Of a stretch of DNA of 64,000 bases, positions 13,217 through 64,000 are shown piece by piece (position 1 is the stretch's first letter; each line of letters starts with the position of its first letter). A model generated the notes under the pieces. It saw only the letters and a list, made by a program, of their open reading frames with translations. It was not told the origin of the DNA and did no database searches. A program made the translations under genes and the position numbers. Origin of the DNA: an uncultured Planctomycetia bacterium (lineage in GTDB: Bacteria; Omnitrophota; Gorgyraeia; 1-14-0-20-64-10); the NCBI GenBank assembly GCA_964373805.1, contig CAYJWF010000004.1, positions 1,891 to 65,890 of the forward strand, read 5' to 3'.

Positions 13217-13271
13217 GGTGTGCCTTTTCGGGAAGGGTTACAGTCTTAAGTTTACCTGAGGGGCATGCGAG

Positions 13272-16185: not shown

Positions 16186-16186
16186 A

Positions 16187-17261: not shown

Positions 17262-17345
17262 CGTATCCGCTCGCCCTGAGCCTGTCGAAGGGCGAACCTG
17301 TCTTCGTGCTTCGACTCTGCTCAGCACGAACGGTTGTCACGGCGA
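17262..17345. repeat. R3 nested-hairpin repeat (conserved loop TGAGCCTGTCGAA / TTCGACWNNGCTCA), mcsA-mcsB intercistronic copy
   Basis: TCGCCC-TGAGCCTGTCGAA-GGGCGA followed by TTCGTGC-TTCGACTCTGCTCA-GCACGAA. Confidence 0.7.
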
Positions 17346-17359: not shown

Positions 17360-17974
17360 TCATCTTTTAGGTCCCTTGCCTTTCACCCTAGATTCTTCAC
17401 CCTTCACTGCCTTTGCCTTTTCCTCCACGGCTCGAACCCGATCCCGAAGACGGGCCGCCTCCTCAAAGGCCTCCGCGGCGACCGCCTTCTTGAGGTTCTC
17501 CTTAAGCCGCGCCAGATCTGTCTCTTCCCCTATGCTTTTAGCGGCATCAGCAGCCCGTCCAGAAAAGTGCCGCGCATCAGCGCGGCCTTCACTTTTCTTG
17601 GCCGCCTTCGGCTGCGAAACGGAAGGACCCTTTCCCACATGTTGGGTGGAACCGTGGATCCGCTTTAACAGGGGAACCAGGTACGGCTCAAACGTCTCGT
17701 AACAGTTCCCGCAGCCAAGCCGACCAACCTTGCGAAACCCTTCGTAAGTCATTCCACACCTGGGGCAGGAAAGCTTGGTTCGCTCGGTCGACTCTCCTTT
17801 AAGCCCGAAGTCGGCGAGGCCGGCCAAAAGGCCTGCTAACCCGAACTCCTGCCCTGCCGCAGTTCCTTTCTCGTGCGCGCAGCTCTCGCAGAGATGGAGC
17901 TCGCGGGTCTGGTCGTCAATGATCTCGGTCAGATGAACCGTCGCCTCGTTTTGTCCACACAGGTCACAGGTCAC
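17360..17974 (-). CDS. mcsA: McsA, activator of protein arginine kinase (zinc-finger / UVR domain)
   Basis: CxxC pairs (CDLCG...CESC; CPRCG...CGNC) and a C-terminal UVR motif (AVAAEAFEEAARLRDRV); carries a partial R1 repeat. Confidence 0.75.
   Translation of the reverse strand: MTCDLCGQNEATVHLTEIIDDQTRELHLCESCAHEKGTAAGQEFGLAGLLAGLADFGLKGESTERTKLSCPRCGMTYEGFRKVGRLGCGNCYETFEPYLVPLLKRIHGSTQHVGKGPSVSQPKAAKKSEGRADARHFSGRAADAAKSIGEETDLARLKENLKKAVAAEAFEEAARLRDRVRAVEEKAKAVKGEESRVKGKGPKR
17533..17600. repeat. R1 repeat element, partial copy (3' half), in mcsA
   Basis: ...CCAGAAAAGTGCCGCGCATCAGCGCGGCCTTCAC; the 33-nt core is identical to the 14712 copy. Confidence 0.75.
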
Positions 17975-18017: not shown

Positions 18018-18036
18018 ACGGGGTCAGACCCCATCA
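18018..18036. repeat. P1 palindrome, intergenic (ilvE-mcsA)
   Basis: CAACGGGGTCAGACCCCATC. Confidence 0.8.
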
Positions 18037-32451: not shown

Positions 32452-32955
32452 TTAAATAAAACCTTCTTCTTTGAGGAGGCGGCGCTTGGCGGCGAGGCCC
32501 CCTTTGGCGGAGTACCCCCCTAAGGTCCCATCACTGGCGATCCCGCTTCGCGGGATTCTCCTTAAACGGTGCACCTTTCGGTGCACGAAAAACTTAGAGG
32601 AAACGACCCGGTGGCAGGGGATCTGAGGCGCCCAGCGGTTTCGTTTCAAGGCCTGCCCCACCGCCCGAGCCGCTTTCGGCTGGCCGATCTGTCTGGCCAC
32701 CCAGGCATAAGTTCGCACCTGCCCCTTGGGAATCTTCAGGATCGCCTCGTATACCTTCCGTTGAAACGGGGTACACTTCTTCCACCACTCCTGCCGATCG
32801 ATCCCATCTCGAATGGGGTCGAAGGGTCGAATCACTACAAGGGGCAGATCCCCACGGGTGATCATCATCGGCTGCCTGTGTCTTGCCACTTCATCCATTA
32901 CCCTATCGAAGTTCCTCTCAGTGAACCTTTCTGATATCTTCTTCACTTTTATCAC
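32452..32955 (-). CDS. ogt: methylated-DNA-protein-cysteine methyltransferase (MGMT/Ogt-like), with a 23-aa insertion in the active-site loop
   Basis: Conserved MGMT C-domain (TPFQRKVYEAI...TYAWVA...PCHRVV ... DGTLGGY). PCHRVV and DGTLGGY are separated by 23 extra residues encoded by two GAA(A)-loop hairpins in the DNA. Confidence 0.7.
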   Translation of the reverse strand: MIKVKKISERFTERNFDRVMDEVARHRQPMMITRGDLPLVVIRPFDPIRDGIDRQEWWKKCTPFQRKVYEAILKIPKGQVRTYAWVARQIGQPKAARAVGQALKRNRWAPQIPCHRVVSSKFFVHRKVHRLRRIPRSGIASDGTLGGYSAKGGLAAKRRLLKEEGFI

Positions 32956-34417
32956 CTTCCTGTGTCTTGTCTGTCTTTAGATGAATCAGGATTCGCTGGG
33001 CGAGTACCGCAGAGATTCCTCGCACCTGGGTGAGATCCTCGGCAGTGGCCTTGCGGATCGCTTCCACCGAACCGAAGAGAACCAAGAGGTCCTGCCGCCG
33101 GCGGGGCCCCACCCCGGGAACATCATCGAGGGCTGAGCTCAGCGCGTGCTTGCCTCGGAGAAGCCGGTGATAGCCAATGGCGAACCGATGGGCCTCATCC
33201 CGGAGCCGTTGGATGAGCTGCAGCGCCTTCGACTGCGGCGGCAAAACGATCGGCTCCTCGTGGCCAGGCAGGAACAGCTGTTCGAACTCCTTGGCGATCC
33301 CCACAGCCGGCAGATCCAGTTTAAGCTCCCTGAACACCTCCAGGGCGGCGTTGAGATGCCCCTTGCTTCCGTCGATCACCACCAGGTCCGGCCTTTTTTC
33401 GGTACCAGGTACCTTTTTAAGAACGGTGCCTGGCACCGTGAGGGGTTCGTATCGCCGCCGGACGATCTCTTTCATCATGGCGTAATCGTCAATCCCGTGG
33501 ACGCCCCTGATTTTAAATCGACGGTACCCATCCTTGAAAGGGACTCCGTCGACAAAGGTCACCATCGACCCGACCGCCTGACGGCCGAAGAGGTTGGAGA
33601 CGTCAAACCCCTCGATGCGCTGGGGCAGCCGCGGCAACTTGAAGATCGATCGTAAGTCGTCCAAGGCCTCGGCCGGGATCAGCCGCCGGGGACGGACGGT
33701 CAGTTGAAGTAAGCCGGCCACCTGATCCCTGAACCTCGCCGCCTCCTCGTAGCGACGGGTCTGGGAGGCCTCGTTCATCTTCCCTTTAAGATCTTCGAGC
33801 ACCTCCTCCTTTTTGCCTTCCATCAATCGGAAAACCTGGGAGAGGTTTTCTCGATAAGCCGCTGGAGAGATCTTTCCTTCACAGGGCGCTGGGCAAAGCT
33901 TGAGATGATAATCGAGACAAGCCCGTTTCGGCAACGTCCGACAGGTTCTAAAAGGGATCACCCGTCGAATGGCGCCGACGGCTTGCCTGAGCAGTTTGGC
34001 GTTGGTGAAGGGGCCGATCGCCTTGATCCCAGACTCGTGGGTCCCCCGCCCAATGAAAAGCCGAGGAAACTCCTCCTCCACGGTGATCTTTAAGGAGGGA
34101 TACGACTTGTCGTCTCGAAAGGAAACGTTGTACTTAGGTTGATGCTCCTTGATGAGGCTCGCCTCGTAGAGAAGGGCCTCCGCCTCCGAGCCGGTCAAGA
34201 TCCACTCCAAATCGTTCGTCTGCTGAATCAGTCGGAGCAGCTTATCGGTGAGCGGCCGACTGGGTTGAAAGTAGCTTGAGACCCTCTTGCGCAGGGAAAC
34301 GGCCTTGCCAACGTACAGGATCTGGCCGTCAACGTCCTTGAAGAGATAGACCCCGGGGCGGTCGGGAAGCTCGCTTAACTTTTTCTGAAGCGCTGGGGGC
34401 ACCGCTCGGCCAGCCAT
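32918..34417 (-). CDS. uvrC: excinuclease ABC subunit C
   Basis: N-terminal GIY-YIG (GVYLFKD...YVGKA), UVR domain, RNase-H-like endonuclease domain and C-terminal HhH; carries a twin-hairpin insertion encoding TVPGTVLKKVPGTEKR. Confidence 0.85.
   Translation of the reverse strand: MAGRAVPPALQKKLSELPDRPGVYLFKDVDGQILYVGKAVSLRKRVSSYFQPSRPLTDKLLRLIQQTNDLEWILTGSEAEALLYEASLIKEHQPKYNVSFRDDKSYPSLKITVEEEFPRLFIGRGTHESGIKAIGPFTNAKLLRQAVGAIRRVIPFRTCRTLPKRACLDYHLKLCPAPCEGKISPAAYRENLSQVFRLMEGKKEEVLEDLKGKMNEASQTRRYEEAARFRDQVAGLLQLTVRPRRLIPAEALDDLRSIFKLPRLPQRIEGFDVSNLFGRQAVGSMVTFVDGVPFKDGYRRFKIRGVHGIDDYAMMKEIVRRRYEPLTVPGTVLKKVPGTEKRPDLVVIDGSKGHLNAALEVFRELKLDLPAVGIAKEFEQLFLPGHEEPIVLPPQSKALQLIQRLRDEAHRFAIGYHRLLRGKHALSSALDDVPGVGPRRRQDLLVLFGSVEAIRKATAEDLTQVRGISAVLAQRILIHLKTDKTQEGDKSEEDIRKVH
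33400..33442. repeat. P2 twin hairpins GGTACCAGGTACC + GGTGCCTGGCACC inside uvrC
   Basis: TTTTTTCGGTACCAGGTACCTTTTTAAGAACGGTGCCTGGCACCGTG; each hairpin reads VPGT in the uvrC frame (TVPGTVLKKVPGTEKR). Confidence 0.85.
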
Positions 34418-39097: not shown

Positions 39098-40693
39098 TTA
39101 CCACTGAGAACTAGCGAAAGGCCACTGGGCCATCCAGAGAACGAGCTGAGTCAACCCATGCGCCAGCCCCGTAAAGCTGGCGACAAAAGGGGCGGCCAAC
39201 CCTGGATGGATCGCCCCTGCTCCTAACAACCCGATTCCGGTGGCCACCAAAAGCGAGGTCCACGGAACGATGAGGAGATTGGCCAACGGGGCAATGGAGG
39301 TCACCAGATGGAAGTGCCAAGCCACCCAAGGCACCACGGCGACCCAGGCCGCCACGGAAGTGGCCACGGCCTGGGCGATCCACCGCCAGAATCGCCCTTC
39401 GGTGTCCCGTTCGGTGTCAGACACCGAAGCAACTTTTATAAAGATGGTGCAGTGTCTGACACCGTCGGTCAGCAACCTCGCCAACCACGGCGCCAAAACG
39501 AGCAGACCCAGAACCGCCGAAAAGGAAAGCTGAAACCCTGGATCGGCCAACGCTCGAGGACCGACCGAGAGGATCCCCAGCGCCGCCAACCCCAGAAAGT
39601 TGATCTGCGGGTGTTCCCTTCCCCGCCACAAACTTAAGGAAAGCCCGATCCCGGTGATCGTAGCGCGAAGGATGGGGGGATCCGCTCCGGTGAGTAGGCC
39701 GTAGACGGCCAGGATCCCGATCACCATCCCAAAGCGGACAGCGCGCGGGATCCGCAGAATCGTCAATCCTATTCCGGCGATGAATCCGATGAGGCCCACC
39801 TGAAAGCCGCTCACCACCAACACGTGAATCGTCCCGGTCCGGCGAAAGGCTTCCCGCAACGAAGAAGGAATCTCTCCGGGGGTCCCTAGAAGAAGTTCTT
39901 CCAGGTAAGCGGCCTCGAGGGGACCCAGCAGGGAACGGCCAAGCTGTTGAAGCTGCCGCCGAAAGGCCGCCACCCATCGTCGATAACGCACCCAGGGTCC
40001 CCCCATCTGCCCAAGAGACGTCATGGAACTCGGATCCGATACCGTGAGAATTCCACACGCCTCGTTCAGCCAAAGCCAGCGGCGCTCATCCCCCCTCACC
40101 CTTTTCCCTCTCCCCTCAGAGGAGAGGGTGGGGGTAAGGGGCCCACGGATCTCTCCGTGGAGGCGCACCCGGTCCCCGTAAGCCAGCGCGACTCCATACG
40201 TTGGGAGCCGAACCAACACCTTGCCGGAGGCCGGAATCCAGCCGTCCCGCTGCCAAACCTCGGTCAAACGGAGCCACCCTTGCCGACGCGCCGGTCCGGA
40301 GGGAGGTTTGGTCCACTCCACATCGCTGGCCATCACTCCTTTGCAAGTAATGGGCCGCGGTGGCTCTGCTAGGTGACGGGCAATGGAATCGGTCGGCATT
40401 TGGGCATCCACGAAGGCCCGGAAAAATCCGAGGGCTCCGATGAGGAACAAGAGAGCCCCGTTCGCCATCACCGATCGATGCCGAATCCAGTAGTAAATTC
40501 CGGCAACAATTCCGACCCCACCCCCAATCGCCCAGACCGGCGGCTGGATCCACCAGGCCAACCCGATCCCACAGGAAAAAGCTGCGGCCACCGCCGCCAG
40601 GGGCGCCCGATGGGTCGGCTGGCCCCCCGCGTTTTGTTTCGTTGGCGAAGCAAAACGAAACTTGGGGGGCTGGGCAACTGGGGATGGATTCAT
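39098..40693 (-). CDS. comEC: competence protein ComEC/Rec2 (DUF4131 plus competence domain, no beta-lactamase domain)
   Basis: Multi-TM ComEC core; the tracked N-terminus is read through repeat R2 copy D, so the true start is probably further in. Confidence 0.7.
   Translation of the reverse strand: MNPSPVAQPPKFRFASPTKQNAGGQPTHRAPLAAVAAAFSCGIGLAWWIQPPVWAIGGGVGIVAGIYYWIRHRSVMANGALLFLIGALGFFRAFVDAQMPTDSIARHLAEPPRPITCKGVMASDVEWTKPPSGPARRQGWLRLTEVWQRDGWIPASGKVLVRLPTYGVALAYGDRVRLHGEIRGPLTPTLSSEGRGKRVRGDERRWLWLNEACGILTVSDPSSMTSLGQMGGPWVRYRRWVAAFRRQLQQLGRSLLGPLEAAYLEELLLGTPGEIPSSLREAFRRTGTIHVLVVSGFQVGLIGFIAGIGLTILRIPRAVRFGMVIGILAVYGLLTGADPPILRATITGIGLSLSLWRGREHPQINFLGLAALGILSVGPRALADPGFQLSFSAVLGLLVLAPWLARLLTDGVRHCTIFIKVASVSDTERDTEGRFWRWIAQAVATSVAAWVAVVPWVAWHFHLVTSIAPLANLLIVPWTSLLVATGIGLLGAGAIHPGLAAPFVASFTGLAHGLTQLVLWMAQWPFASSQW
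40612..40665. repeat. R2 hairpin repeat copy D at the comEC 5' end
   Basis: CCCCCCGCGTTTTGTTTCGTTGGCGAAGCAAAACGAAACTTGGGGGG. Confidence 0.7.
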
Positions 40694-41727: not shown

Positions 41728-41992
41728 GCTTCTTCTGACCCCCCACGCAGAGGCGGATCTCCTTCGCCTATCCACCGACCTGCGGCAAAGGTTAAAGGAA
41801 GACGTCCTGCGCCTCACTCAGGCCCCAATCCCATTTCGACAACTGAAGAAGCTCCGAAGCTTCAACCCTCCCATTTGGCAACTCACCTCAGGCCGTTTCC
41901 GGATTCTCTATCGTCGAGAAGAAGGGAGGCTGCTGATTCTCCGAGTGGTCGCTAAGCCGGACCAAAAAGATCTCTTCCGCTCTCTGCGCTAA
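41702..41992 (+). CDS. RelE/ParE-family toxin
   Basis: 96 aa; ...RFRILYRREEGRLLILRVVAKPDQKD... typical RelE/ParE C-terminus. Confidence 0.75.
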   Translation: MSEGARPLELLLTPHAEADLLRLSTDLRQRLKEDVLRLTQAPIPFRQLKKLRSFNPPIWQLTSGRFRILYRREEGRLLILRVVAKPDQKDLFRSLR

Positions 41993-44900
41993 GCGGACCG
42001 ATCGGGTAGGGTCACCTGCTCCAGGCCGGTCGCCGTGTAGTGGCCCACGTCCACAAGGAAAGTCTGCTCTCCAGAGAAGAGGGCGTTGATCACCACCTCT
42101 TCCAGCCTCTCCCAGGGTAACCGAAGGGATTCCTTCTGGCCACCTTCAGATTCAGGCCGCCGGAGGATTTGGATGATGCGGTAGCCTTCCTTCTCGAGAA
42201 GGCTCTTTTCCGAGAGAAGGCCCAGTTGAAAGCTGCGGCCCTCTTCTTCCGGATACCGATATCTCTTCAGGAGCCTCTTCGTCAAGCCGAGCAACCGAAT
42301 CAAAATCCCCTCCTGCCGAGGTTCCGAGAATCCCACCGGAATCGCTGGGTCCTCGAGCAGTTCCGGATCAAACAGGACCGCCAGCATAGGCGACCCCCTC
42401 ATCGCTTGCAGAACGAGATGGTCCCGTTCCGACCATTCCTGCCCAGGACGCGGCAGTATCAACTCGAGGAGTTGCGCCATATCCGAATGAACCGGCGCCG
42501 AAGAAGCTGTGCCGAGTCCCATCGAAAGGGTATCGTAGGGACCGATCCCCCTGCGAACCTGCACGGTGAGGAGATCAGGCCATAAGGAGGCTCCTCCATA
42601 TGACCGCGACGGGACATGAATGACTGAGGGGTCGTCGGTAAAACGACCTTGCGTGCCTGGATCCAAGATAGCCTCAGGGTGAAGGACGAGCGAAAGGGTA
42701 CGCTCCGCCTGATTGTAGGAGAGATCTTGGAGGATAAATCCATCCTGAGTATCCATAGTCCAGTCCCATCTCCGGACAGCTTCATCTGAGACGAGGCTTC
42801 CCCATAGGATGGTGAACTGACGCGTTGGGGTGTAATAAGGCACGGGTTCTTCTTTAATCTTCAGGCCGTCCACACCGCCTTTGCCGAGGATGCGAAGATC
42901 AGGCCCAGAGGTGGCGGTCTCTATGCGAAGAAGATCGTCCTCCGTACAGAAGATGTACGTTGGCAACTTCCGCTCGGTTCCTGTAAGCAAATTGGGACGA
43001 CCGGCATACCGAATCCCATTCCCCGGCCTTTGCAACAGATCCCGATAATACGTCGACCCCTCCTCCAGGCCGGTGCTAGGTGATGGTGAAGAATCCTCCC
43101 CCAACGGAGCCGCGGAACCGATATCGGGGCGAAAGCCAAGGTCTCGAAAGAGACGTTCGTACTGGTTCACCACAAACCGGTACGATATCCAATTTGGCAC
43201 AGCGAGATTGGGATCGGTTCCTGAAGCCCGGAGGGCGTGCCCGATCTGTCCGCAGAGGTCCCTGATCCTTCTGGCCAGAGCGGCTGTCTGCCTTGCAGTG
43301 GGCTTATAACGGGTCCTGTTCAAGCCTCGGTAAACTGCCTCGTCCGCTGCAAGGGCCGCCAACGAATCCAACAGCCTCGTAAGTCCTTCCTGTAAGAGAA
43401 CCTGGAGTTGAGCTCGCTGCTGCCTGTCGGTGGAGGCATTCAGATCCTTGATGAGCCTCCTGAACGTGGGAATCCCGTCAAGCCTAAACCCTGCCTCTGT
43501 CTCTCTTCGCCTCTTTTGAAGAAAACTGAGAAAGGAAAGCCGCATCTTCGACGCATCCTTCGAACCTTGAGCTAAGCGAAAGGCAACTCCATTGATCGCC
43601 ACTTCGCTGATCATGGCCGCTGCGGGAATTCCCGCTCCCTGGACCAATCTCTTCACGGAGCGACTGGGATTAAGAAGCGCCATGGAAAGACGAGGCCCCT
43701 CAAGAAACGGATGGCCCGGAAATCCTTCAACGATCGCAGCGAGTTGCTTTTCCTTGGATGGGAACCGGCCCTCCAAACCAAAAACGATCAACCCTCCAAG
43801 CGCACGGAGGATCATGGGAGCAGCTTCACGGAGAAACCGTCTGGCCTCTCCAGGCGCACCGGCTAAACCAATGACCAAGATCCTTCGATCCCTTTCCAAC
43901 TCAACCCGAAATCGGTCCCGTTGCCCAAGCTCAGCATCCAGGCGCACCTCGTCAAATCGAATCGGCTGGCCCAGGCGCGAGGTAGCCCGCTCCTCCCATT
44001 TCTCCAGCTCCCCCATCAATCGGACCAAATCCTTGGGTCTCCATTCCTGCGCACGCCAACCGTTCAACACCTCCAAGCCCTTGACCCGCTTCAACCGTTC
44101 CTCCAGGCCGGCCCCTTCGATTCGCCCTTCGGGCTCCCTCAGGCTAAGCCTGAGCGATTCTGCCGAAGGGCCGGTGGATGGTGCCGTGGAATCCTGGTAT
44201 ACTAGAGGTAGATAAAAATCTCCAACGGACAACGAGGGACGTTGGTGCGCTTCTTGACCAACGCGGGTACCATCATCTTGGGAGGGCTGATTGTTGGGCC
44301 TTTCTTTGGACAACAACCATTCCGACCTCACATGTGCGTGATCGGTTGGTTTCTGTACGGCACCGTATTTAGCCTGGCCCTTTGGCTCAGTCCAACTGGA
44401 AAGGAGGAGCCGTGATGGAAGGGATTTGGTTTGGTTACCTGGCGGTTGGAACGTTGATCGTGGTAGCCCTGGTACTTGGTTGCTTGGATCGGAAATCTCG
44501 CCGGCACGAGAAACAGACCCATTAATCCATCCCCTGCCTTCCTCTAAACCTGCCCTCAACGAATCCGCAGGACGACCGGTAGCCGGATCGAGCGCACGAT
44601 CCATCCGCTGATAGGCAATATCGTTCGACCCTATGCGGCCAATATCTGCATTCCAAAACTCCCACCATTTCGGGTCCACCATGGCCCACAGGCCTTCTGC
44701 ACCCGGGGTAACCGCACGGCCCAGCACATAAGTCATCTCTTGAGTCTGCATCGCTTGGCCCAGCCCTTTTGCTTTCTTGGCCACGGCTCCTCTTGCCTTC
44801 GCCATAATCTTTCGAGATAACCCCTCATCCACCAATCCCCCTAGTGGGACAAAGGCCGAGGTTCCAAGAGGTTCTATCAAGGAGTCCGACAAGGCCATTC

Positions 44901-45396
44901 TCTTTAAGTTACGATCTAGGTGGACAATCCGAAACAGTAAACCGTTTCCCGCGTAGTCTGTTGGGAGCCGGAAGAAGGGAAATTCTTTAAAGTAGAGGTG
45001 TAAGTGAATCCACCAGTCGCCTCCTGCTCCTTTGACCAAATGGTCTTGAAGAGGCGCGTCCTCGAAACCAATGTATAAACTGGATCCACCGTGTTCCTTT
45101 ATCTGGCTCTTTAGGTGCTCCCGAACCAAACGCCTTACCCGGTCGACGTGTCGCTCCTCCAGGCCAACGGCCGAAGCAGAAGAGGAACCCAGCAGGGCGG
45201 CGGTGAGCTCCTGCTCCTCTAGGCCGGAGTCCTTGGTTTGGATCTTGCGAAGCCCCAAGGCTGGACTAGGCAGGGCGAGGTTCATGGATAGAAAAAGGGC
45301 CGCCACTCGGGGGAACAAATAAGCTCGTCTCATCGGGTTTGCCTGTTTCGGTTCAAGTATACCCAACGAGGTCCGGTAAGTCAATAGTATAGTCAA
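41989..45396 (-). CDS. large secreted hypothetical protein (about 1115 aa) of the GLEE-motif family
   Basis: Likely start MRRAYLF... near 45334, after a TTGACT-N17-TATACT promoter; signal peptide; many (S/A/T/V)GLEE motifs; C-terminal domain ...EQTFLVDVGHYTATGLEQVTLPDRSA shared with ORF 46863..47141; no known catalytic domains recognised. Confidence 0.6.
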   Translation of the reverse strand: MTILLTYRTSLGILEPKQANPMRRAYLFPRVAALFLSMNLALPSPALGLRKIQTKDSGLEEQELTAALLGSSSASAVGLEERHVDRVRRLVREHLKSQIKEHGGSSLYIGFEDAPLQDHLVKGAGGDWWIHLHLYFKEFPFFRLPTDYAGNGLLFRIVHLDRNLKRMALSDSLIEPLGTSAFVPLGGLVDEGLSRKIMAKARGAVAKKAKGLGQAMQTQEMTYVLGRAVTPGAEGLWAMVDPKWWEFWNADIGRIGSNDIAYQRMDRALDPATGRPADSLRAGLEEGRGWINGSVSRAGEISDPSNQVPGLPRSTFQPPGNQTKSLPSRLLLSSWTEPKGQAKYGAVQKPTDHAHVRSEWLLSKERPNNQPSQDDGTRVGQEAHQRPSLSVGDFYLPLVYQDSTAPSTGPSAESLRLSLREPEGRIEGAGLEERLKRVKGLEVLNGWRAQEWRPKDLVRLMGELEKWEERATSRLGQPIRFDEVRLDAELGQRDRFRVELERDRRILVIGLAGAPGEARRFLREAAPMILRALGGLIVFGLEGRFPSKEKQLAAIVEGFPGHPFLEGPRLSMALLNPSRSVKRLVQGAGIPAAAMISEVAINGVAFRLAQGSKDASKMRLSFLSFLQKRRRETEAGFRLDGIPTFRRLIKDLNASTDRQQRAQLQVLLQEGLTRLLDSLAALAADEAVYRGLNRTRYKPTARQTAALARRIRDLCGQIGHALRASGTDPNLAVPNWISYRFVVNQYERLFRDLGFRPDIGSAAPLGEDSSPSPSTGLEEGSTYYRDLLQRPGNGIRYAGRPNLLTGTERKLPTYIFCTEDDLLRIETATSGPDLRILGKGGVDGLKIKEEPVPYYTPTRQFTILWGSLVSDEAVRRWDWTMDTQDGFILQDLSYNQAERTLSLVLHPEAILDPGTQGRFTDDPSVIHVPSRSYGGASLWPDLLTVQVRRGIGPYDTLSMGLGTASSAPVHSDMAQLLELILPRPGQEWSERDHLVLQAMRGSPMLAVLFDPELLEDPAIPVGFSEPRQEGILIRLLGLTKRLLKRYRYPEEEGRSFQLGLLSEKSLLEKEGYRIIQILRRPESEGGQKESLRLPWERLEEVVINALFSGEQTFLVDVGHYTATGLEQVTLPDRSA
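45366..45394 (-). promoter_or_regulatory. sigma70-like promoter (TTGACT-N17-TATACT) for the 1135-aa GLEE-family gene
   Basis: Minus-strand sense TTGACTTACCGGACCTCGTTGGGTATACT, ~25 nt upstream of the ATG near 45334, inside an AT-rich island. Confidence 0.5.
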
Positions 45397-45521: not shown

Positions 45522-46826
45522 GTGCCTATTCGCAGAGACCTGCTGGATCGGATCGGTCCCTTCCTTAAACGGAAGGAGTTTTTGGCGATCGTGGGCCCCC
45601 GGCAGGCGGGGAAGACGATCTTTCTGGAGCTGTTGGGAGCGTATCTGAACGAAAATTTACACGTCCCAAAGGAGCGAATCCAGAACATCACGTTTGAGGA
45701 CCGCCGGCTGCTGGCCGAATTTGAGCGGGACCCTGTTCCCTTCATCCAATCGTATCTGCCGACTAAGGTTCCCCCATCCTTCACCTTGATGATCGATGAG
45801 TTTCAATACGCCCGGGAAGGCGGACAGAAGTTGAAGCTGATCTACGATACGGTTCCCGGGATCAAGGTGATCGTAACCGGGTCCTCCTCCTTGGAGCTCA
45901 AGGCTCAAGTCGGAAGGTATATGGTCGGAAGGATCTTGAACTTCAACCTCTGGCCTTTTCATTTCGGCGAGATTTTAAGAGCCCGTTCTCCCCGGTTGGA
46001 GAGGGTTTACGACCAACGGAATGAATCCCTTCTGCGATGGCTTAAAGAGGGAAAGCCGGTCCCCATGACGCCTGGTCCGGATGGATTCCGTGAGGAGATG
46101 AGGCCCCTCTTTGAAGAGTACTGCATCTGGGGCGGCTATCCGGCGGTGGTCTTGAGCGAAGGACAGGAGGAACGAAAGAAGGTCCTGGCGGAGATTTACA
46201 ACAACTACATTCTCAAGGACATCAAGACCCTGTTGGAATTGGCCACGGAAGAGAAGCTGTACCGGCTGGCTCAAGTATTGGCTACCCAGATCGGGGATCT
46301 CGTGGTTTACCAACATCTCAGTCAGGCATCCGACCTGGATTACCGGAATTTAAAGAAGCATCTGACCATCCTCACGCAGACCTTTATCACCCAGCAGCTC
46401 CGTCCCTTCTTTAAGAACCGACAGAAGGAGCTGGTCAAAAATCCAAAGATCTTTTTCCTGGACCTGGGATTTCGCAATACCTTGACGGAGAACATGAACC
46501 GGTTGACGACGCGGCCAGATGCCGGGGCGATGGTAGAGAACGCGGTGTGGATCCGGCTTCATGGGCTGTTTGAGGGAACGGAGAAGATCAATTTCTGGAG
46601 AACCAAGGCCGGTGCGGAGGTCGATTTCGTTCTTCATCTTGCCGACCGCCTCCTCCCCATGGAAGTAAAATACAGCCCCTCGGCTGGGGAAAAACTCCCC
46701 AGGGGCTTGGCCAGTTTTATCGAACAGTTTCATCCCCCCGCCGCCTTGGTCCTGACGAAAGATTCCTGGGGCCGGATGAAACGGGGCAAGACCTCCATCC
46801 TGTTCGCCCCGGTCTACTATCTTTAG
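45522..46826 (+). CDS. AAA+ ATPase of the COG1373/DUF4143 family (second copy)
   Basis: Walker A GPRQAGKT, DEFQ Walker B, C-terminal DUF4143-like region; preceded by TTGACA...TATAAT-like promoter and a GGAGGTGA Shine-Dalgarno. Confidence 0.7.
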   Translation: MPIRRDLLDRIGPFLKRKEFLAIVGPRQAGKTIFLELLGAYLNENLHVPKERIQNITFEDRRLLAEFERDPVPFIQSYLPTKVPPSFTLMIDEFQYAREGGQKLKLIYDTVPGIKVIVTGSSSLELKAQVGRYMVGRILNFNLWPFHFGEILRARSPRLERVYDQRNESLLRWLKEGKPVPMTPGPDGFREEMRPLFEEYCIWGGYPAVVLSEGQEERKKVLAEIYNNYILKDIKTLLELATEEKLYRLAQVLATQIGDLVVYQHLSQASDLDYRNLKKHLTILTQTFITQQLRPFFKNRQKELVKNPKIFFLDLGFRNTLTENMNRLTTRPDAGAMVENAVWIRLHGLFEGTEKINFWRTKAGAEVDFVLHLADRLLPMEVKYSPSAGEKLPRGLASFIEQFHPPAALVLTKDSWGRMKRGKTSILFAPVYYL

Positions 46827-47303: not shown

Positions 47304-49868
47304 TTAAACGACGAGGCTGATGAGGCGGTTGGGGACGACAATCACCTTCTTCGGCGGCTTGCCATCCAACCAGCGTTGAACGTTGGGATCCTGAAGAACC
47401 TTGGCCTTCAGCTCCTCCTCTTGAGAGCCAACCGGGACCGTCAGATGGGAGCGGACCTTGCCGTTGACCTGCACGACCAGGGTCACCTGCGACTCCTGGA
47501 GGAGGGCAGGATCGTAGGTTGGCCAAGGAGCCTTGGCCAACATCTCCTGGTGGCCCAGCCGTTCCCACAGCTCCTCGGCCAGGTGAGGGGCAAGGGGGTT
47601 TAAAAGCCGGGCCAGCGTCTCGATGGCTTCCTTTCTCTGCCCATCGGAAAGCTGAGGAAAAATCCTCTCCAGGGAGTTCCGATACTCCATCAGGGCGCTG
47701 ATCGCCGTGTTGAACTTGAAGCTCTCCAGATCCTCGGTGACCCGCTTGATCGTCGCGTGGGTGAGGCGCTTAAGCTCACCATCCGATGGAAAACCTGATG
47801 GGGTCAGACCCCTTGGGGTCTGACCCCTTTGACCCTCCACCAAGTTCCAGACCCGATTCATGAACCGCCAGATGCCGTCGATGGCGCTGTCGTTCCATTC
47901 CAGTTGATCCTCCGGGGGAGCGGCGAAAAGGATGAAGAGTCTTAAGGCATCGGCCCCGTACTTGGCGATCACTCCCTCCGGATCGACCACGTTCCCCTTG
48001 GATTTGGACATGACCTCGCCATCCTTCAAAACCATTCCCTGAGTCAAGAGGCGAGAAAACGGCTCTGAGATTGTAAGGAGCCCTAGATCCCGCAGGAACT
48101 TGGTGAAGAAACGGGAATACAGGAGATGCAGGATGGCGTGCTCGATCCCACCGATGTACTGGTCCACCGGCATCCAGAAGGCGGCCTCTTGGGAATCAAA
48201 CGCAGTGGCGGCCGCTTTCGGGGCCGCGTGCGGCTTCGGGGAACAGAACCGCAGGAAGTACCACGAGGAGTCGAAGAAGGTGGCTATGGTGTCGGTCTCT
48301 CGACGGGCCGGTTGCCGACATTTGGGACAGGGCGTCTCCACAAAGGCCTTGACCTTGGCCAACGGTGAGCCCCCGGCTCCTGTGATTGAAACCTTGGGCG
48401 GCAAGGTGACCGGCAACTGGTTCTCAGGAACCGGCACGGTCCCGCAACGGGAGCAGTAAACGATCGGGATGGGAGTCCCCCAGTACCGCTGTCGAGAGAT
48501 GAGCCAATCCCGAAGCCGCCAATGGGTCGTCCGCTGGCCAAATCCATTCTCCTCCATCCAGGCGGCGATCTTTCCCTTACCCTCTTGACTAGACAGACCA
48601 TTAAACTGGGCGGAGTTGACCTGGATCCCTTCCCCTTCGAAGGCCTCTTTCCATCGGCTGGGATCAGGGACAGTCCCCGAAGCTTGCCCTGAGCTTGTCG
48701 AAGTGGGAGACGGTCCCTGAGGAGGCTGGATCACGACTCGGATCGGAAGTCGATGTTCCTTGGCGAACAGAAAATCCCGCTGATCGTGCGCCGGGACCGC
48801 CATGATCGCCCCGGTGCCGTACTCCATGAGGACATAATCGGCCACCCAGATCGGGATTGCCTCTGCGTTCACCGGGTTGATGGCCATCCGCCCGGTGAAA
48901 ATCCCCTCCTTCTTTCTATCGGCGGCGGTCCGGACCTCTCTGGGCTGGCGCTTCACCCGATCGATGAAGGCCCGAACCTGGGGCCCTTTAGGGTTACCTT
49001 GAAGAAGCTCCTCGACGACCGGATGTTCTGGCGCCAAAACGACGTAGGTGGCGCCAAAGATCGTGTCCGGCCGGGTGGTAAAGACCGGAAGTTTTGTCGA
49101 GCTGTTCTGAATGGAAAATTGGATCCGAACCCCTTGGCTCTTCCCGATCCAGTTCCGTTGCATGGTTAAGACACGCTCCGGCCAGCGGCCCAAGGTATCC
49201 AGGTCCTGCAGGAGTTCCTCCGCATACGCGGTGATTTTCAAGAACCACTGCTCCAACTCCTTCGGCTCCACGGCGGTTCCACAGCGCCAGCAGCCGTCTT
49301 GGACCACCTCCTCGTTGGCCAGGGTCGTCTGACAACTGGGACACCAGTTGACCGTGGCTCCGGCCCGATAGGCGAGGCCCTTCTCGAACATCTTGAGGAA
49401 GATCCACTGGTTCCATCGGTAATAGTCCGGCTGGCAGGTCACCACCTCTCGATTCCAGTCGTAGGAGAATCCCAAACGTTTCAAGCCGGTTCGCACCTCT
49501 CCGATGCACCGGAAGGTCCACTCGGCCGGATCCACCTTCTGTTTGATCGCCGCGTTCTCCGCCGGCTGGCCAAAGGCATCGAATCCCGTGGGATGAAGGA
49601 CCCGGTACCCCTGGGCCATCCGAAACCGGGCCAGGACGTCGCCGATCGTGTAGTTCCGGACATGCCCCATGTGGAGGCGCCCCGAGGGATAGGGGAACAT
49701 TTCCAGGAGGTAATATTTTCCTCTTCCGGTGTCTGGCACCGACCCGACCTTTGGCTCCTTCGGGGTGCCTGACACCGGTGTGGCCTGGAAGATCTTCGCC
49801 TCTTCCCACCGCCGCTGCCACTTTTCTTCGATTTCTTGAAATGGGTAAGCCATCGTCGGAAAAGCCAT
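47304..49868 (-). CDS. leuS: leucyl-tRNA synthetase
   Basis: HIGH (HMGHVRN) and KMSKS motifs; 854 aa; carries two in-frame repeat insertions. Confidence 0.95.
47798..47830. repeat. two tandem P1 palindromes inside leuS
   Basis: GATGGGGTCAGACCCCTTGGGGTCTGACCCCTTT; encodes [12 protein letters not shown]. Confidence 0.85.
48655..48700. repeat. R3-related segment inside leuS coding sequence
   Basis: ...GCTTGCCCTGAGCTTGTCGAAGTGGGAG...; in frame; encodes part of the [14 protein letters not shown] linker in LeuS. Confidence 0.5.
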
Positions 49869-49937: not shown

Positions 49938-50008
49938 TGGGGCTGTAGCGTAAAGGGAGCGCATCTCCATGGCATGGAGGAGGTGAGGGTTCGATTCCCT
50001 CCAGCTCC
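49938..50008 (+). tRNA. tRNA-Ala (anticodon GGC)
   Basis: Cloverleaf folded by hand: acceptor GGGGCTG/CAGCTCC with G3:U70, anticodon loop ATGGCAT, T-arm GAGGG-TTCGATT-CCCTC; coordinates +/-1. Confidence 0.7.
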
Positions 50009-50029
50009 AACAATTTCCATTCAAATACT

Positions 50030-50113
50030 TGGGGATGTGCTGGAATTGGCAGACAGGGGAGTCTCAAAAACTCCTGGGCGCAAGCCCGTGGGGGTTCAAG
50101 TCCCTCCATCCCC
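50030..50113 (+). tRNA. tRNA-Leu (anticodon CAA), type II with long variable arm
   Basis: Acceptor GGGGATG/CATCCCC, D-arm CTG-GAATTGGCAGA-CAG, anticodon stem GGAGT/ACTCC with loop CTCAAAA, variable arm TGGGCGCAAGCCCGT, T-loop TTCAAGT; coordinates +/-1. Confidence 0.7.
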
Positions 50114-50151
50114 ACTCAAATTTCTCCATCCCTCATTTGGGAGGGCTCTTG

Positions 50152-50895
50152 GTGCCTAAGCCACGGCTTCCTGACAAAGACTTTCCTTGGACACCTGAAC
50201 TGGCTTACGCGATTGGTCTTCTTACGACAGATGGCAATCTATCAAAGGATGGACGACACATCACCCTAAGATCGTCCGATCTACAACTTTTGGAGACATT
50301 CAGACGTTGCCTTAATCTGACGCGAAGCGGCCCGATCGTCCTGACAAAACGGACGGGGTGGGCTAAGAAGCCAAGCTTTAGGGTTCAATTCAGCAACGTT
50401 CAGTTCTATCGATGGCTCACGAAAATCGGTTTGCATCCTGCGAAAACGTATACCTTGGGTGAGCTGCGTGTTCCCGACGCGTATTTTCCAAACTTTCTGA
50501 GAGGCCACCTGGATGGGGATGGTTCCATTACAGTATCCAGGGACACCTATAACACTTTTAAACATCCCAAATATGTGTACACAAGACTCTACGTGAGCTT
50601 TCTATCGGCAAGTAGACAACACGTGGATTGGATTCAATCGAAGATCTCCGTATTGCTCGGCATTCAGGGTCATAGAAGCCACTACTCTCGAAAAGGCAAC
50701 GGTCGCCACGCTACCATGTGGAAGCTCCGATGTGCTAAGAAAGACTCTTTGAAGCTGCTGGCACGGTTATACCATCGGCAGGACATCCCCTGCTTGGAAC
50801 GCAAAAGAGAGATCGCGAAACAACGGCTTATCCCTTCCTGGGAGGAAGGAGACACAGACAGCGAGAGTTCTCAAAAAGTGCTAGGCCTGCCTTGA
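50152..50895 (+). CDS. LAGLIDADG homing endonuclease (double-motif), free-standing
   Basis: Two LAGLIDADG motifs (LAYAIGLLTTDGNL and LRGHLDGDGSITVS); likely GTG start after a GGGAGGG Shine-Dalgarno, ~40 nt after tRNA-Leu; the tracked ORF extends upstream over the tRNA and that part is rejected. Confidence 0.7.
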   Translation: MPKPRLPDKDFPWTPELAYAIGLLTTDGNLSKDGRHITLRSSDLQLLETFRRCLNLTRSGPIVLTKRTGWAKKPSFRVQFSNVQFYRWLTKIGLHPAKTYTLGELRVPDAYFPNFLRGHLDGDGSITVSRDTYNTFKHPKYVYTRLYVSFLSASRQHVDWIQSKISVLLGIQGHRSHYSRKGNGRHATMWKLRCAKKDSLKLLARLYHRQDIPCLERKREIAKQRLIPSWEEGDTDSESSQKVLGLP

Positions 50896-58674: not shown

Positions 58675-58692
58675 GGGGTCTGACCCCATCAG
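58675..58692. repeat. P1 palindrome, intergenic (after nrdJ)
   Basis: CTCGGGGTCTGACCCCATCAG. Confidence 0.8.
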
Positions 58693-59276
58693 AATTTTTC
58701 GCACCGTTTTAAGATCGCCCGAAAGTTCCTCTTCAAGCTCGAGCGCTCCAGTTCTTGGAAAACCCACTCGGGAATCCAGAAGTTCGGTTCGACGGTCGTT
58801 TCGTACGTGATTCGGGTTTCCCCTTCGACCGATTCCAAATACCAGTAGCCCTGATTCCATACAAAATCCCCCTCGACCGCCTTAAAGAGAAGCTGGGTGT
58901 TGGAAATTTCTTGAACCTGGAAAACCGTTCGGATCACTCTTCGATAAAACGGCAAGCGGACTCTTGCCTCCTGATAGAGCACTAAGCGATCCCCTTTTCG
59001 CTCAAGGACTTTGGAGATCTTAAGATCCGGGATAAATTCGGCTAGGTGGTCGTAATCGGTCAAAACAGCCCAAACCTTTTCCTTTGGGACAGCAACGACC
59101 ACCCGGGCTAAGACGTAGGTTCGACGGGGGGCTAGACGCTCTACGGTAACGGTAAGGGAATAGGGCCCTATTTCGGTAACGCGGGTTTCCTCGGCAAGAA
59201 GGAAAGAGGCGCTCCCCACGAGAGAGCTTAACGCCAGCAGTAAGGTTACACCACCCATGCAAGTTGACCCGTTCAC
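58689..59276 (-). CDS. secreted SRPBCC (START/Bet v1-like) family protein
   Basis: Signal peptide then polyketide-cyclase/dehydrase-like fold pattern (~150 aa). Confidence 0.45.
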   Translation of the reverse strand: MNGSTCMGGVTLLLALSSLVGSASFLLAEETRVTEIGPYSLTVTVERLAPRRTYVLARVVVAVPKEKVWAVLTDYDHLAEFIPDLKISKVLERKGDRLVLYQEARVRLPFYRRVIRTVFQVQEISNTQLLFKAVEGDFVWNQGYWYLESVEGETRITYETTVEPNFWIPEWVFQELERSSLKRNFRAILKRCEKF

Positions 59277-59345
59277 CCTTCGACAGGCTCAGGGTGAACG
59301 GCAATGTTCGTGCTTCGACAAGCTCAGCACGAACGGTTTTGCACG
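59269..59345. repeat. R3 nested-hairpin repeat, two tandem units
   Basis: CCGTTCACCC-TTCGACAGGCTCAG-GGTGAACGG then GTTCGTGC-TTCGACAAGCTCA-GCACGAAC. Confidence 0.7.
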
Positions 59346-60104: not shown

Positions 60105-60160
60105 CTATCCCCCACGTTTTGTTTCGCTTCGCGAACCAAAACGAAACTTGGGGGACCCTT
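60105..60160. repeat. R2 hairpin repeat copy E
   Basis: CCCCCACGTTTTGTTTCGCTTCGCGAACCAAAACGAAACTTGGGGGACCC. Confidence 0.7.
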
Positions 60161-63587: not shown

Positions 63588-63799
63588 TTTTTCGGTGATG
63601 ACCGGGGCTAGCTGTCTGGATTGTTCATTTCGCCATAGAAATGTCCTGTTAGTAACAGGTTACCTGCTCCCGCAGGAAAATTCAAGGCCCCACAAGCCGC
63701 AAGGAAATTTTCCTCACTTTTACCTCCCCATAGGCCATACTTGATGTGAAGACCTCGAAAAAGGCACGGCCACATTCAAGGCCACGCAAAGCCACGGAT

Positions 63800-63845
63800 C
63801 TTTTGGTGCCAGGCACCTTTTAAAGATGGGTGCCTGGCACCAAAA
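63800..63845. repeat. P2 twin hairpins GGTGCCAGGCACC + GGTGCCTGGCACC upstream of tpsA
   Basis: TTTTGGTGCCAGGCACCTTTTAAAGATGGGTGCCTGGCACCAAAAAAG. Confidence 0.8.
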
Positions 63846-64000
63846 AAGAGAGCCGGGCTGCCGAGGTGCAGAAGATTTTGCGTCACGGCAACCCGGCGTT
63901 TTTATTTTCCTGGTTTCCTTCGGCCTTTCGTAAAAGGTGAGAACGGATTAGGATGGAAGGGATAACCTTAAGATGACGATGCAGCGAGTTAATCCTTTGC

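Follow-up and report, generated by a model that had tools for sequence, protein, structure and literature searches.

A 13-nt palindrome that occurs twice in the leuS gene of an uncultured Omnitrophota bacterium is probably an intragenic REP-type element in dimeric, REPIN-like hairpin form, presumably spread by a REP-associated tyrosine transposase (RAYT) and tolerated in a surface loop of the enzyme. In the 64-kb stretch of DNA analysed here (the window), in related loci and in metagenome contigs we observe a dispersed family with an inverted-dimer layout, length differences of the insertion type, sharing of the same loops by different families, and open reading frames only; on two metagenome contigs the doublet physically adjoins RAYT-like genes. 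The leuS element is a new example of intragenic REP dimers and not a new phenomenon, because such dimers, tagged with GTAG or CGTC and found in tRNA synthetase and uvr genes among others, were published in 2013 (Di Nocera, De Gregorio & Rocco, 2013; PMC3733652).

The leuS doublet and its fold

The host gene lies at 47304–49868 on the minus strand, where the ORF listing of the window gives an 854-aa frame. Its product matches LeuRS of T. thermophilus (1H3N) with an E value of 1.1e-268 and is 72–75% identical to the LeuS proteins of its closest Omnitrophota relatives. The initial annotation had reported a 13-nt palindrome present twice in this gene with both copies in frame, and both units are there: unit 1 (GGGGTCAGACCCC, A-centred on the + strand) at 47800–47812, and unit 2 (GGGGTCTGACCCC, T-centred) at 47815–47827, an inverted copy that follows 15 nt after unit 1 across a TT spacer. 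Read on the minus strand, they encode in frame residues 681–690 of LeuS. The 34-nt string quoted for the pair is present as well and begins at 47797 instead of 47798, a trivial difference of one base. The repeat unit is the 13-nt palindrome GGGGTC-W-GACCCC, doublets are built of the unit family GGGGTCWGACCCC, and the period of the leuS doublet is 15 nt, not 13. An extended arm or tail at 47790–47799 (AAAACCTGAT on the + strand, ATCAGGTTTT on the coding strand) encodes SGF, and the element-encoded part of LeuS loop C as a whole covers 47787–47828 on the minus strand (codons 681–694).

Units 1 and 2 fold together as a 12-bp hairpin, with energies of −28.1 kcal/mol (z −4.15) in the mRNA sense and −26.5 kcal/mol (z −4.48) on the other strand. 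Reading the leuS copy as an intrinsic terminator was not supported: the terminator scan did not call the hairpin, and a UUUU begins 7 nt past the stem, with no T-run directly after it. The covariance models of Rfam 15 returned generic hairpin matches alone, far under their gathering scores.

Unit 1 is identical at 13/13 positions in leuS loop C of three related genomes (L081, L082 and L205), and unit 2 is 85–100% identical among the four genomes including the window, against an identity of just 57–74% at flanking synonymous third positions in the same four genes. Such conservation, together with the very high stability of the hairpin, would fit a selected cis-element in leuS, acting for example in mRNA stability, ribosome pausing, antisense termination or as a site for a dimeric protein, rather than a tolerated hairpin. 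REPs have been proposed as RNA elements (PMC3733652), and many intergenic copies in other taxa carry A-run/T-run flanks resembling those of bidirectional terminators (a T-run is found in L105, L126, L143 and L194). We nevertheless consider a selected role unlikely. When LeuS orthologues were aligned, the segment proved not to be generally conserved, as the initial annotation had held: it is absent in 32 of 35 close relatives and in 80 of 80 more distant ones, and many of the orthologues without the doublet hold unrelated palindrome families in loop C. The leuS copy also lacks the immediate T-run of a terminator and any Rfam match, and homogenisation against other copies, or recent re-insertion, would give equal conservation.

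Palindrome families in the loops of LeuS

Loop C is hypervariable, with 49–79 residues between conserved anchors in the orthologues compared. In the AlphaFold2 model, residues 683–693 are a coil of pLDDT below 50 that lies between helices 660–682 and 696–711; so modelled, the site would be a coil joining two helices of the LeuS anticodon-binding domain.

The doublet is not the only repeat in the gene. An R3-related segment had also been noted in leuS, and we find it as an exact 17-mer, CTTCGACARGCTCAGGG, at 48687–48703. It sits in the loop B insert (48665–48719, minus strand, about +14 aa), where inverted arms CAGGGACCGTCTCCC and GGGGACTGTCCCTG of the GGGACWGTCCC family bracket the R3 17-mer CTTCGACAAGCTCAGGG. 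Further exact copies of this 17-mer occur at 17274 and 59278 and a 2-mismatch copy at 59313, making 4 matches in the window where 0.04 are expected. Loop B has 35 aa in most orthologues against 49 in the window LeuS, residues 386–398 have a pLDDT below 50, and loop B of L205 and L206 also bears GGGACWGTCCC units. A third repeat-derived segment, overlooked in the initial annotation, fills loop A (49728–49776, minus strand, about +14 aa) with two 13-nt arms, GGTGTCAGGCACC and GGTGCCAGACACC, mutually inverted except for the centre base and 23 nt apart. This insert is absent in L081, L082, L083, L204 and L205, where the loop has 21–23 aa compared with 37 in the window, and residues 32–50 again have a pLDDT below 50. 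The claim that leuS hosts two repeat families was right about the second family and too low in its count, since the gene has at least three palindrome families and arguably four. All three loops are hypervariable, of low model confidence, and filled by different palindrome families in different lineages of the orthologues.

Other copies within the window

With up to one mismatch allowed, the window has 7 sites of the 13-mer, which give 13 strand-hits; shuffled sequence gives an expectation of 0.32 strand-hits, and 0 of 100 shuffles reached 13. Six of the copies are exact and one is near, a density of about one per 10 kb; in this small sample, 5/7 are intragenic and 2/7 intergenic. Two copies lie in cysS (2133–2190, minus strand), GGGGCCTGACCCC at 2178–2190 and GGGGTCAGACCCC at 2133–2145, 32 nt apart. 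The segment encodes WGQAP...RGLTP, and between positions 84 and 109 CysS is longer than the solved CysRS 3TQO by about 22 residues. Another copy (3632–3644, minus strand) is contained in the 21-nt AAAAGGGGTCAGACCCCTTTT and forms the linker (KGKRGQTPF) of an IspDF ORF, in which Pfam places IspD at residues 2–198 and YgbB/IspF at residues 208–361. Both intergenic copies are within 2 nt of a stop codon: one, at 18020–18032, is 2 nt off the stop of an aminotransferase gene and beside a GGTACCAGGTACC palindrome at 17991, and the other, at 58675–58687, lies between convergent genes, 29 nt past a ribonucleotide reductase stop and 2 nt past the stop of the opposing gene. The competence genes comEA and comEC are also present in the window.

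UvrC of the window has about 9 extra residues relative to a solved homologue. In the window, the UvrC site RRRY..PDLVVIDG is occupied by a GGTGCC/GGTACC pair; L081 has three GGGGTC units there, and L206 about seven units of the GGGACWGTCCC type. Judged from these sequences, the different families at this UvrC site, and the two frames in which LeuS loop B holds the GGGGTC element in L081 and L083, would count as independent insertion events. The neighbour-joining tree of LeuS is star-like and without bootstrap support; doublet carriers are not monophyletic in it, and it is not decisive between single and repeated insertion. Neither a target-site duplication nor a clean empty site could be defined for the leuS element among the available relatives, because the nearest of them are about 75% identical and the loops are hypervariable.

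Spread in relatives and metagenome contigs

Copies were also found in three related Omnitrophota loci, with 4 sites in 22 kb of L081, and the 13-mer was not found in 616 kb of more distant leuS loci. Loop C of leuS has the 15-nt doublet in L081 and L082, and loop B has it in L083; in L081 it is also found in uvrC and in an intergenic region, and L205 has a pair at the loop C site with a spacer of 12 nt. The assembly GCA_016196375.1 likewise contains such doublets. Beyond these relatives, at least 120 metagenome contigs from three or more phyla contain the doublet, with an identical core in Omnitrophota, Actinomycetota-like and alphaproteobacteria-like contigs. The 120 contigs listed hold 128 doublets, 4 triplets and 2 quadruplets; 102 doublets among them are inverted and 22 direct, and 36 of the 120 carry additional copies, up to 15 units in the 8.9-kb L168. 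The case for over-representation of the doublet in metagenomes is a rough one: an order-of-magnitude calculation, in which the collection size is assumed, gives about 1 expected hit, and flanks are shared and some contigs have several copies. In the viral contigs scanned, the doublet had 0 matches, as did three composition-matched control doublets, which shows only that the doublet is not phage-borne.

The sequence following the hairpin is shared as well. After the doublet, a tail (A/T/C)TCAGGT is found in leuS of L081, L082 and L205 and in uvrC of L081, and the same tail flanks intergenic copies in L129, L137, L166, L170 and L190. The bases after the stem are CATC-AGG in the window, L081, L137, L166 and L170, CTTC in L082 and CACC in L205. 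CGTC follows the stem in only some copies, such as those of L129 and L118, and a terminal GTAG tetranucleotide follows it in none of the copies compared. We also considered whether doublets of 13-nt palindromes are a general class of many sequences, which would make the cross-phylum identity a coincidence, and rejected this, since neither 616 kb of unbiased loci nor 594 kb of doublet-bearing contigs has short-spacer doublets built from any other half-site.

Positional link to RAYT-like genes

On the metagenome contig L156, an ORF at 359–982 matches Pfam Y1_Tnp (E 8.7e-14) and scores 75 bits with NCBIfam NF047646, the REP-associated tyrosine transposase model, compared with 17 bits when scored with the IS200 model. 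This ORF is preceded, at a distance of 69 nt, by a 3-unit array, and its stop codon is overlapped by a doublet. L126 encodes a RAYT-like homologue, 39% identical to that of L156 and scoring 72 bits, whose gene ends in a doublet and whose 5′ side is off the contig; both scores are just under the curated NF047646 cutoff of 80 bits. In the Omnitrophota MAG L003, a RAYT-like gene beside leuS has its own inverted REP pairs on both sides. Two RAYT genes were found in 594 kb of doublet-bearing contigs and one in 616 kb of control loci. RAYTs are not numerically enriched on doublet-bearing contigs, and the link between the two is therefore one of position. The 64-kb window and 70 kb of close-relative loci contain no RAYT or other transposase, a point against this mechanism, and that a RAYT mobilises the copies in the window organism is inferred.

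These data suggest the following mechanism. Two inverted units 15 nt apart, with the short tail ATCAGGTTTT, would make up an element of about 30–40 nt that could fold to the 12-bp hairpin as single-stranded DNA or RNA. The hairpin would be recognised by a single-copy HUH tyrosine transposase, the RAYT, which would copy elements around the chromosome. Copies in genes would survive only where the frame is stop-free and where the extra residues, rich in Gly, Pro, Thr and Ser, fall in a dispensable surface loop; the leuS copy would be neutral for the LeuRS enzyme. Arrays could then lengthen or shorten by slippage without loss of frame, because the unit self-pairs in either orientation and the 15-nt period equals 5 codons.

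Several points run against the REP reading. The canonical GTAG tag is absent, and the tail starts with CATC, which is near but not equal to CGTC. An intragenic location for 5/7 of the window copies is atypical of "extragenic" palindromes, and lineage-specific REP families would not usually have an identical core in three phyla alongside RAYTs of just 39% identity. The REP reading accounts neither for this cross-phylum identity of the core nor for the nearly perfect conservation of the element at a single codon position of leuS in four genomes. In a bolder reading, a single REPIN lineage, very old or spreading horizontally, would have its core kept across at least three phyla (Omnitrophota, Actinomycetota-like and alphaproteobacteria-like) by diverged RAYTs. 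Its landing would not be random but repeatedly directed to, or re-copied into, fixed codon positions in essential genes, as in loop C of leuS (four genomes) and at one site of uvrC (three genomes), and the hairpin would have acquired a role there, for example in mRNA structure, translation pausing or antisense control. We give this scenario an outside chance; if true, the doublet would be a conserved intragenic mobile hairpin and not tolerated junk.

The elements could also be mobile and not driven by RAYTs, either as a minimal MITE with two 13-nt terminal inverted repeats served by another transposase, or as a DNA-uptake-type signal spread by recombination. The core starts like what we take to be the ends of the Tn3 family (GGGGTCTGAC), and pairs of 13-nt arms with variable spacers of 2–40 nt (in cysS, LeuS loop A, uvrC and at 4001/4041 of L081) resemble mini-elements bounded by inverted repeats. 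The presence of comEA and comEC would fit an uptake signal, and CGTC-type REPs have been reported without a dedicated transposase (PMC3733652). We find this quite unlikely, as no target-site duplications were seen, the elements (28–66 nt) are under known MITE sizes, and the sole transposase found adjoining copies is RAYT-like. Palindromy and the covariation of families (GGGGTC/GACCCC, GGTACC/GGTACC, GGTGCC/GGCACC) point to recognition of a structure and not of an oriented uptake signal.

Copy number and reading frames

The initial annotation described the leuS segment as a tandem duplication. As a local event this did not hold up: the units are inverted, A-centred and T-centred, and form one 12-bp hairpin, and the same doublet recurs at many other sites, which makes it the usual form of a dispersed element. 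Local duplication or replication slippage in leuS, making both copies in situ with no mobile element, is accordingly very unlikely. A 15-nt period is divisible by three, self-complementarity makes a unit liable to slip, and copy number at other sites does differ in 15-nt steps, from 2 to 4 or more units, with arrays of 3–4 or more in uvrC and loop B of L081 and in L115, L156 and L162. The differing centre bases are nonetheless expected of inverted and not of direct copies, an identical 13-mer is found at 5 other window sites and in many genomes, and the doublet with its ATCAGGT tail occurs at unrelated sites (uvrC of L081; intergenic in L129, L170 and L190). Slippage may tune copy number and cannot account for the origin.

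In frame 0, a T-centred unit reads TGA. The confirmed genes, which encode LeuS, CysS, IspDF, UvrC, SMC, a polyprenyl synthase and a beta-CASP RNase, use just the frames giving GSDP or GQTP/GLTP. The single frame-0 unit, in L205, is A-centred and hence stop-free. Reading frames without a stop codon are the only ones seen, in line with a frame filter on intragenic copies. In LeuS loop B the GGGGTC element is read in two different frames, in L081 and in L083. Selection for the peptide of residues 681–690 as a functional LeuRS loop, with the DNA palindrome incidental, is highly improbable: the peptide is common to the window, P0003 and P0009 at the same position, and partly to P0004, whereas other genes, and LeuS loop B of L081, read the same DNA as GSDP and it also occurs between genes, the loop, modelled as a low-confidence coil, is hypervariable, and the codons themselves, not just the residues, are conserved.

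Read as REP-type insertions, the repeats would account for the odd low-complexity Gly/Pro/Thr/Ser stretches in LeuS, CysS, UvrC and IspDF of Omnitrophota, which is of relevance for annotation, alignment trimming, phylogenomics and structure prediction in these uncultured bacteria, and would extend intragenic REP dimers to this phylum. Repeated colonisation of the same permissive loops by different families would show, as a natural map, where essential enzymes tolerate insertions. The identity of the core across phyla, with the positional link to RAYT-like genes, provides a testable handle on how RAYTs recognise hairpins.

Comparison with known systems

A literature search returned no relevant match for the repeat sequence or for Omnitrophota palindromic repeats, and our comparison is with the classes of element that the doublet resembles. 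MITEs have terminal inverted repeats, target-site duplications and lengths of about 50–500 bp; the doublet has 13-nt inverted arms and a length below this range. The uptake sequences of Neisseria and Haemophilus are over-represented oligomers that form terminator-like hairpins as inverted pairs and also occur in coding regions in tolerated frames. They are asymmetric 9–12-mers, present about once per kb and maintained by uptake bias, whereas the unit here is palindromic and occurs about once per 10 kb, several covarying palindrome families exist side by side, and on two contigs a transposase is adjacent.

The palindromic elements of Rickettsia sit in frame in a wide range of unrelated housekeeping genes, where the fold and function of the protein permit it (Ogata et al., 2000; reviewed in PMC10969869). 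The in-frame insertion in housekeeping genes is shared. RPE-1 elements are about 100–150 bp, encode a conserved peptide, are specific to Rickettsia and have no known transposase; our elements, at 28–66 nt, are 3–5 times shorter, lie in another phylum, have the same DNA read in two frames and show a positional link to RAYT-like genes.

The REPs of PMC3733652 are stem-loop repeats, mostly inverted dimers, dispersed and usually just downstream of ORFs. Some lie in frame inside genes, where they encode about 20–30 residues interpreted as lying in flexible loops; DNA-repair genes (uvrA, uvrB) are frequent hosts, and tRNA synthetase genes are among the hosts too. Opitutus terrae, which is a PVC bacterium, and Rickettsia conorii have the largest numbers of them (PMC3733652). 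The elements described here are likewise dispersed, inverted dimers, in frame in housekeeping genes, with intergenic copies near stops. They have the dispersed multi-copy palindrome and the mainly inverted dimers of a REP and lack its conserved GTAG/CGTC terminal tetranucleotide. They differ further in that the unit itself is a perfect 13-nt palindrome, the tail is near-CGTC (CATC), dimers are phased at 15 nt, 5/7 window copies are intragenic, and the core is found in Omnitrophota, Actinomycetota-like and alphaproteobacteria-like contigs; the GGGGTC family and the peptides GSDP, GQTP and GLTP are absent from the text and supplement of that paper.

In the REPIN–RAYT system, what replicates is a pair of inverted REPs that folds into a long hairpin, and the repeats flank the gene of a Y1/HUH transposase, the RAYT, which is present in single copy (Bertels & Rainey, 2011; PMC3116915). 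Classical REPINs are about 50–110 nt, essentially extragenic and lineage-specific, whereas the element here is about 28–40 nt, often intragenic and common to several phyla. A RAYT-like gene next to repeats is found for the GGGGTC doublet in L156, with arrays on both sides, and in L126, on the 3′ side, and L003 has the arrangement with a different REP.

A palindromic doublet in a variable loop of LeuS

The window organism is a member of the Omnitrophota, and its 854-residue ORF at 47304-49868 (minus strand) is LeuS beyond doubt (E = 1.1e-268 against LeuRS of Thermus thermophilus); the nearest LeuS sequences in a collection of 5.8 billion proteins are 72-75% identical. The initial annotation described two copies of a palindrome inside this gene, and both are there: unit 1, the A-centred GGGGTCAGACCCC, lies at 47800-47812 and is followed by TT and by unit 2, the T-centred GGGGTCTGACCCC, at 47815-47827, the segment encoding residues 681-690. 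The repeat within leuS is confirmed, and the reading of it is supported in part: a tandem duplication is not supported, since the units are mutually inverted and their ATCAGGT tail is common to unrelated sites. Such a shared tail means that copying includes more than the bare palindrome, which argues for templated spread over an origin in situ. The doublet folds into a hairpin with a perfect 12-bp stem and a loop of 4 nt (-28.1 kcal/mol, z = -4.15). With at most one mismatch allowed, the 13-mer occurs at seven sites in the window, giving 13 strand-hits vs. 0.32 expected from shuffles. The 'R3'-related segment also described in leuS was recovered as the 17-mer CTTCGACARGCTCAGGG at 48687-48703, with further copies at 17274, 59278 and, with two mismatches, 59313 (0.04 expected).

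Between the conserved motifs WRFxNRVW and FKFNTAI, LeuS is hypervariable, with 49-79 residues in 80 species representatives and 49-74 in 35 close relatives. Three loops (A, B and C, the doublet being in C) vary likewise, and different orthologues fill them with peptides recognisably derived from repeats: the GGGGTC palindrome studied here gives RGQTP/GLTP or GSDP, a GGTACC family VPGT/GTRY, a GGGAC family GTVP/GLSP and, in loop C of other orthologues, the longer 'R3' hairpin family EPVEGRT...LRxxQG. In an AlphaFold2 model of LeuS (mean pLDDT 78.8), the segments below 50 include 32-50, 386-398 and 683-693, which are the three loops; residues 683-693 form a coil between helices 660-682 and 696-711. 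An extra Ala/Pro-rich stretch of six residues at 546-556 (48201-48233), also modelled at low confidence, is present in none of the 35 close orthologues, and no repeat family was recognised there.

Read in frame 0, the T-centred unit contains a TGA stop, which leaves an inverted doublet only two open frames, encoding GSDP or GQTP/GLTP; confirmed genes show no others for it. The leuS locus L205 has the sole frame-0 unit, and that unit is A-centred. With a period of 15 nt, or five codons, arrays that change in size stay in frame.

Divergent genes for tRNA-Ala(GGC) and tRNA-Leu(CAA) lie upstream of leuS (49938-50115). The mechanically called start of an ORF with a LAGLIDADG_3 domain (50029-50895) falls within the tRNA-Leu gene, which means that the real start must lie farther downstream; it is unusual to find a homing-endonuclease-like gene beside tRNA genes. 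Directly downstream of leuS, a 1135-residue ORF (41989-45396, minus strand) has recurring GLEE motifs and no Pfam domain, and relatives carry unannotated ORFs in the same position (L204, 2916-8636, 1906 residues; L206, 6671-8359, 562 residues). One of the two AAA_14/DUF4143 ATPase genes in the window (11894-13057 and 45522-46826) adjoins leuS, as does such a gene in the relative L082 (2561-3700).

Recurrence at the same sites

Four genomes carry the element at one leuS position in loop C: the window (AAAGGGGTCAGACCCCAAGGGGTCTGACCCCATCAGGTTTTCC) and the loci L081 (..GGGGTCAGACCCCGGAGGGTCAGACCCCATCAGGT), L082 (..GGGGTCAGACCCCACAGGGTCTGACCCCTTCAGGT) and L205 (GGGGTCAGACCCC and GGGGTCTGACCCCACCAGGTTTTCC, separated by 12 nt). 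Unit 1 does not differ among the four, and unit 2 keeps 85-100% identity; the conserved codons on either side agree at only 57-74% of their synonymous third positions. The LeuS distance tree is star-like, its element carriers are not monophyletic, and the window's nearest neighbour (P0002, from L204) lacks the element. The loop C element may be one old insertion kept intact or may reflect repeated insertion at a single site; selection, homogenisation or re-insertion may each account for near-perfect conservation at this codon position.

Repeated independent insertion is directly shown at LeuS loop B and at a site in UvrC. In loop B, L083 has the same element in frame 2 (RGQTPEGQTP) and L081 has three units in frame 1 (GSDPRGSDPRGSDP). 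The UvrC site, RRRY-PDLVVIDG, holds a GGTGCC/GGTACC pair in the window (33401-33437, in a uvrC-like ORF at 32918-34417, minus strand), three GGGGTC units in L081 (21250-21300), again with the ATCAGGT tail, and about seven GGGACWGTCCC-type units, adding 47 residues, in L206 (16072-16210).

Other repeats in the window

In cysS (992-2431, minus strand), a copy at 2133 encodes RGLTP and a near copy at 2178 encodes WGQAP; these inverted 13-nt palindromes, 32 nt apart, edge an insert of about 22 residues (WGQAPDLRELQEVGKRGLTPLD, 2133-2190) that is missing from the solved CysRS 3TQO. The copy at 3632 (3622-3651), in an IspD/IspF ORF (3145-4245, minus strand), sits exactly at the domain junction: the 21-nt palindrome AAAAGGGGTCAGACCCCTTTT accounts for nearly the entire linker KGKRGQTPF between IspD (residues 2-198) and IspF (208-361), and the canonical IspF start MRVGIGFDIH follows directly. 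A once-intergenic repeat may have fused ispD and ispF, or the repeat may have inserted into a pre-existing linker. Intergenic copies at 18020 and 58675 each lie within 2 nt of a stop codon.

Further 13-nt palindromes of similar general shape recur, namely GGTACCWGGTACC, GGTGCCWGGCACC, GGGACWGTCCC and a type with GGTGTC/GACACC arms. One GGTACCWGGTACC/GGTGCCWGGCACC pair lies within uvrC and encodes TVPGT..KVPGT, and UvrC has about nine extra residues spanning the pair relative to a solved homologue. A hairpin family of about 46 nt (CCCCCC..GTTTTG..CGAAGCAAAAC..GGGGG) occurs at 13172-13217, 14138-14183, 16136-16186, 40623-40668 and 60109-60154; the one at 40623, between comEC and comEA, is in the syntenic position where L003, an Omnitrophota MAG, has a RAYT-like gene. 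Four copies of a 68-nt direct repeat, 69-100% identical and including the palindrome CTGGCGCAGCCAG, occur at 8722-8789, 14714-14781, 17518-17585 and 26184-26251, and intergenic 'R3' hairpins of the GTTCRCCCTGAGCCTGTCGAAGGGYGAAC type at 17267-17309, 59259-59301 and 59313-59329. A borderline c-di-GMP-I riboswitch match at 63753-63865 on the plus strand (36.6 bits, gathering score 35) overlaps two GGTGCCWGGCACC palindromes (63805 and 63829); the two hairpins may have produced a false match, or the riboswitch may be real and belong to a gene past the window end.

Distribution beyond the lineage

In 616 kb covering leuS loci from more distant bacteria there was no exact match to the 13-mer, and 2.9 million viral contigs had no copy of the doublet. 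A metagenome scan with the pattern GGGTCWGACCCYNNNGGGTCWGACCC returned at least 120 contigs, against an expectation on the order of one by a rough calculation with an assumed collection size. Those listed span GC contents of 0.36-0.75 and originate in soil, marine, freshwater and subsurface samples. Marker proteins of one GC-poor contig are 90% identical to marine alphaproteobacteria labelled Rickettsiales, and those of one GC-rich contig 85% identical to Gaiellaceae/Solirubrobacter. Among the matches listed, L129 alone is from a relative of the window organism, and its doublet is intergenic, upstream of leuS. Additional copies occur on 36 of the 120 contigs listed, and subfamilies have extended, lineage-specific flanks in common. 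The doublet is in frame in real genes of other organisms, including those for SMC, a beta-CASP ribonuclease (four doublets), a polyprenyl synthase and an HlyD-type adaptor. In the DNA compared, the GGGGTC palindrome is the only 13-nt palindrome that forms such doublets, so the recurrence is specific to its sequence. One 8.9-kb contig, L168, has 15 units (e.g., 170-245, 2892-3170, 4361-4430 and 5429-5600), mostly in apparently non-coding stretches and with degenerate variants GGGGTCGGACCCC and GGGGTCTGACGCC; it is possibly a hotspot or array region for the family.

Association with RAYT-like transposases

Screening ORFs near the repeats for an HUH motif and then against Pfam identified two Y1_Tnp proteins, on contigs L156 and L126. 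The L156 ORF (359-982, 208 residues) follows a three-unit array, which ends 69 nt before the ATG, and at its 3' end the stop codon overlaps a doublet. The L126 protein, 39% identical, terminates in a doublet, with a second 400 nt downstream. Their best profile is NCBIfam NF047646, the model for REP-associated tyrosine transposases (75 bits for L156 and 72 for L126; cutoff 80), the IS200 model giving 17 bits, and their best PDB match, a weak one, is E. coli TnpA-REP 4ER8. A third homologue, in L003, lies between comEA and comEC, adjoining leuS, with inverted REP pairs to either side, the canonical arrangement; these pairs differ in sequence from the GGGGTC doublet. The 1.35 Mb of DNA searched has no further homologue, and none of the three is in the window or the loci of close relatives; the association between doublet and RAYT (REP-associated tyrosine transposase) is therefore positional. 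It is consistent with about one RAYT per genome amid many repeat copies, and from these other contigs we infer RAYT-type mobilisation in the window organism.

Comparison with known palindromic elements

Repetitive palindromic elements (REPs) occur in more than 80 species of eight phyla, mostly as inverted dimers just downstream of ORFs (Di Nocera et al., 2013; PMC3733652). That study reported intragenic REPs in several species, including in uvrA, uvrB and tRNA synthetase genes, most numerous in Opitutus terrae (PVC superphylum) and Rickettsia conorii; dimers or groups make up more than half of the inserts and encode 20-30 residues, and the authors interpret the inserts as lying in flexible loops. 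Its supplement has dimers inside glycyl- and isoleucyl-tRNA synthetase genes, and GSDP, GQTP and GLTP peptides are not among its entries. In-frame insertion is classically exemplified by Rickettsia palindromic elements (PMC10969869). Given these precedents, the leuS element belongs to a known kind. The best explanation of the leuS segment is an intragenic REP dimer that a disordered loop of the protein tolerates. The element departs from the REPs of Di Nocera et al. in five respects: the unit is a 13-mer that is palindromic in itself; the GTAG tag is missing and the tail (CATC) only approaches CGTC; dimers have a 15-nt phase; most copies in the window are intragenic; and the core is identical across phyla.
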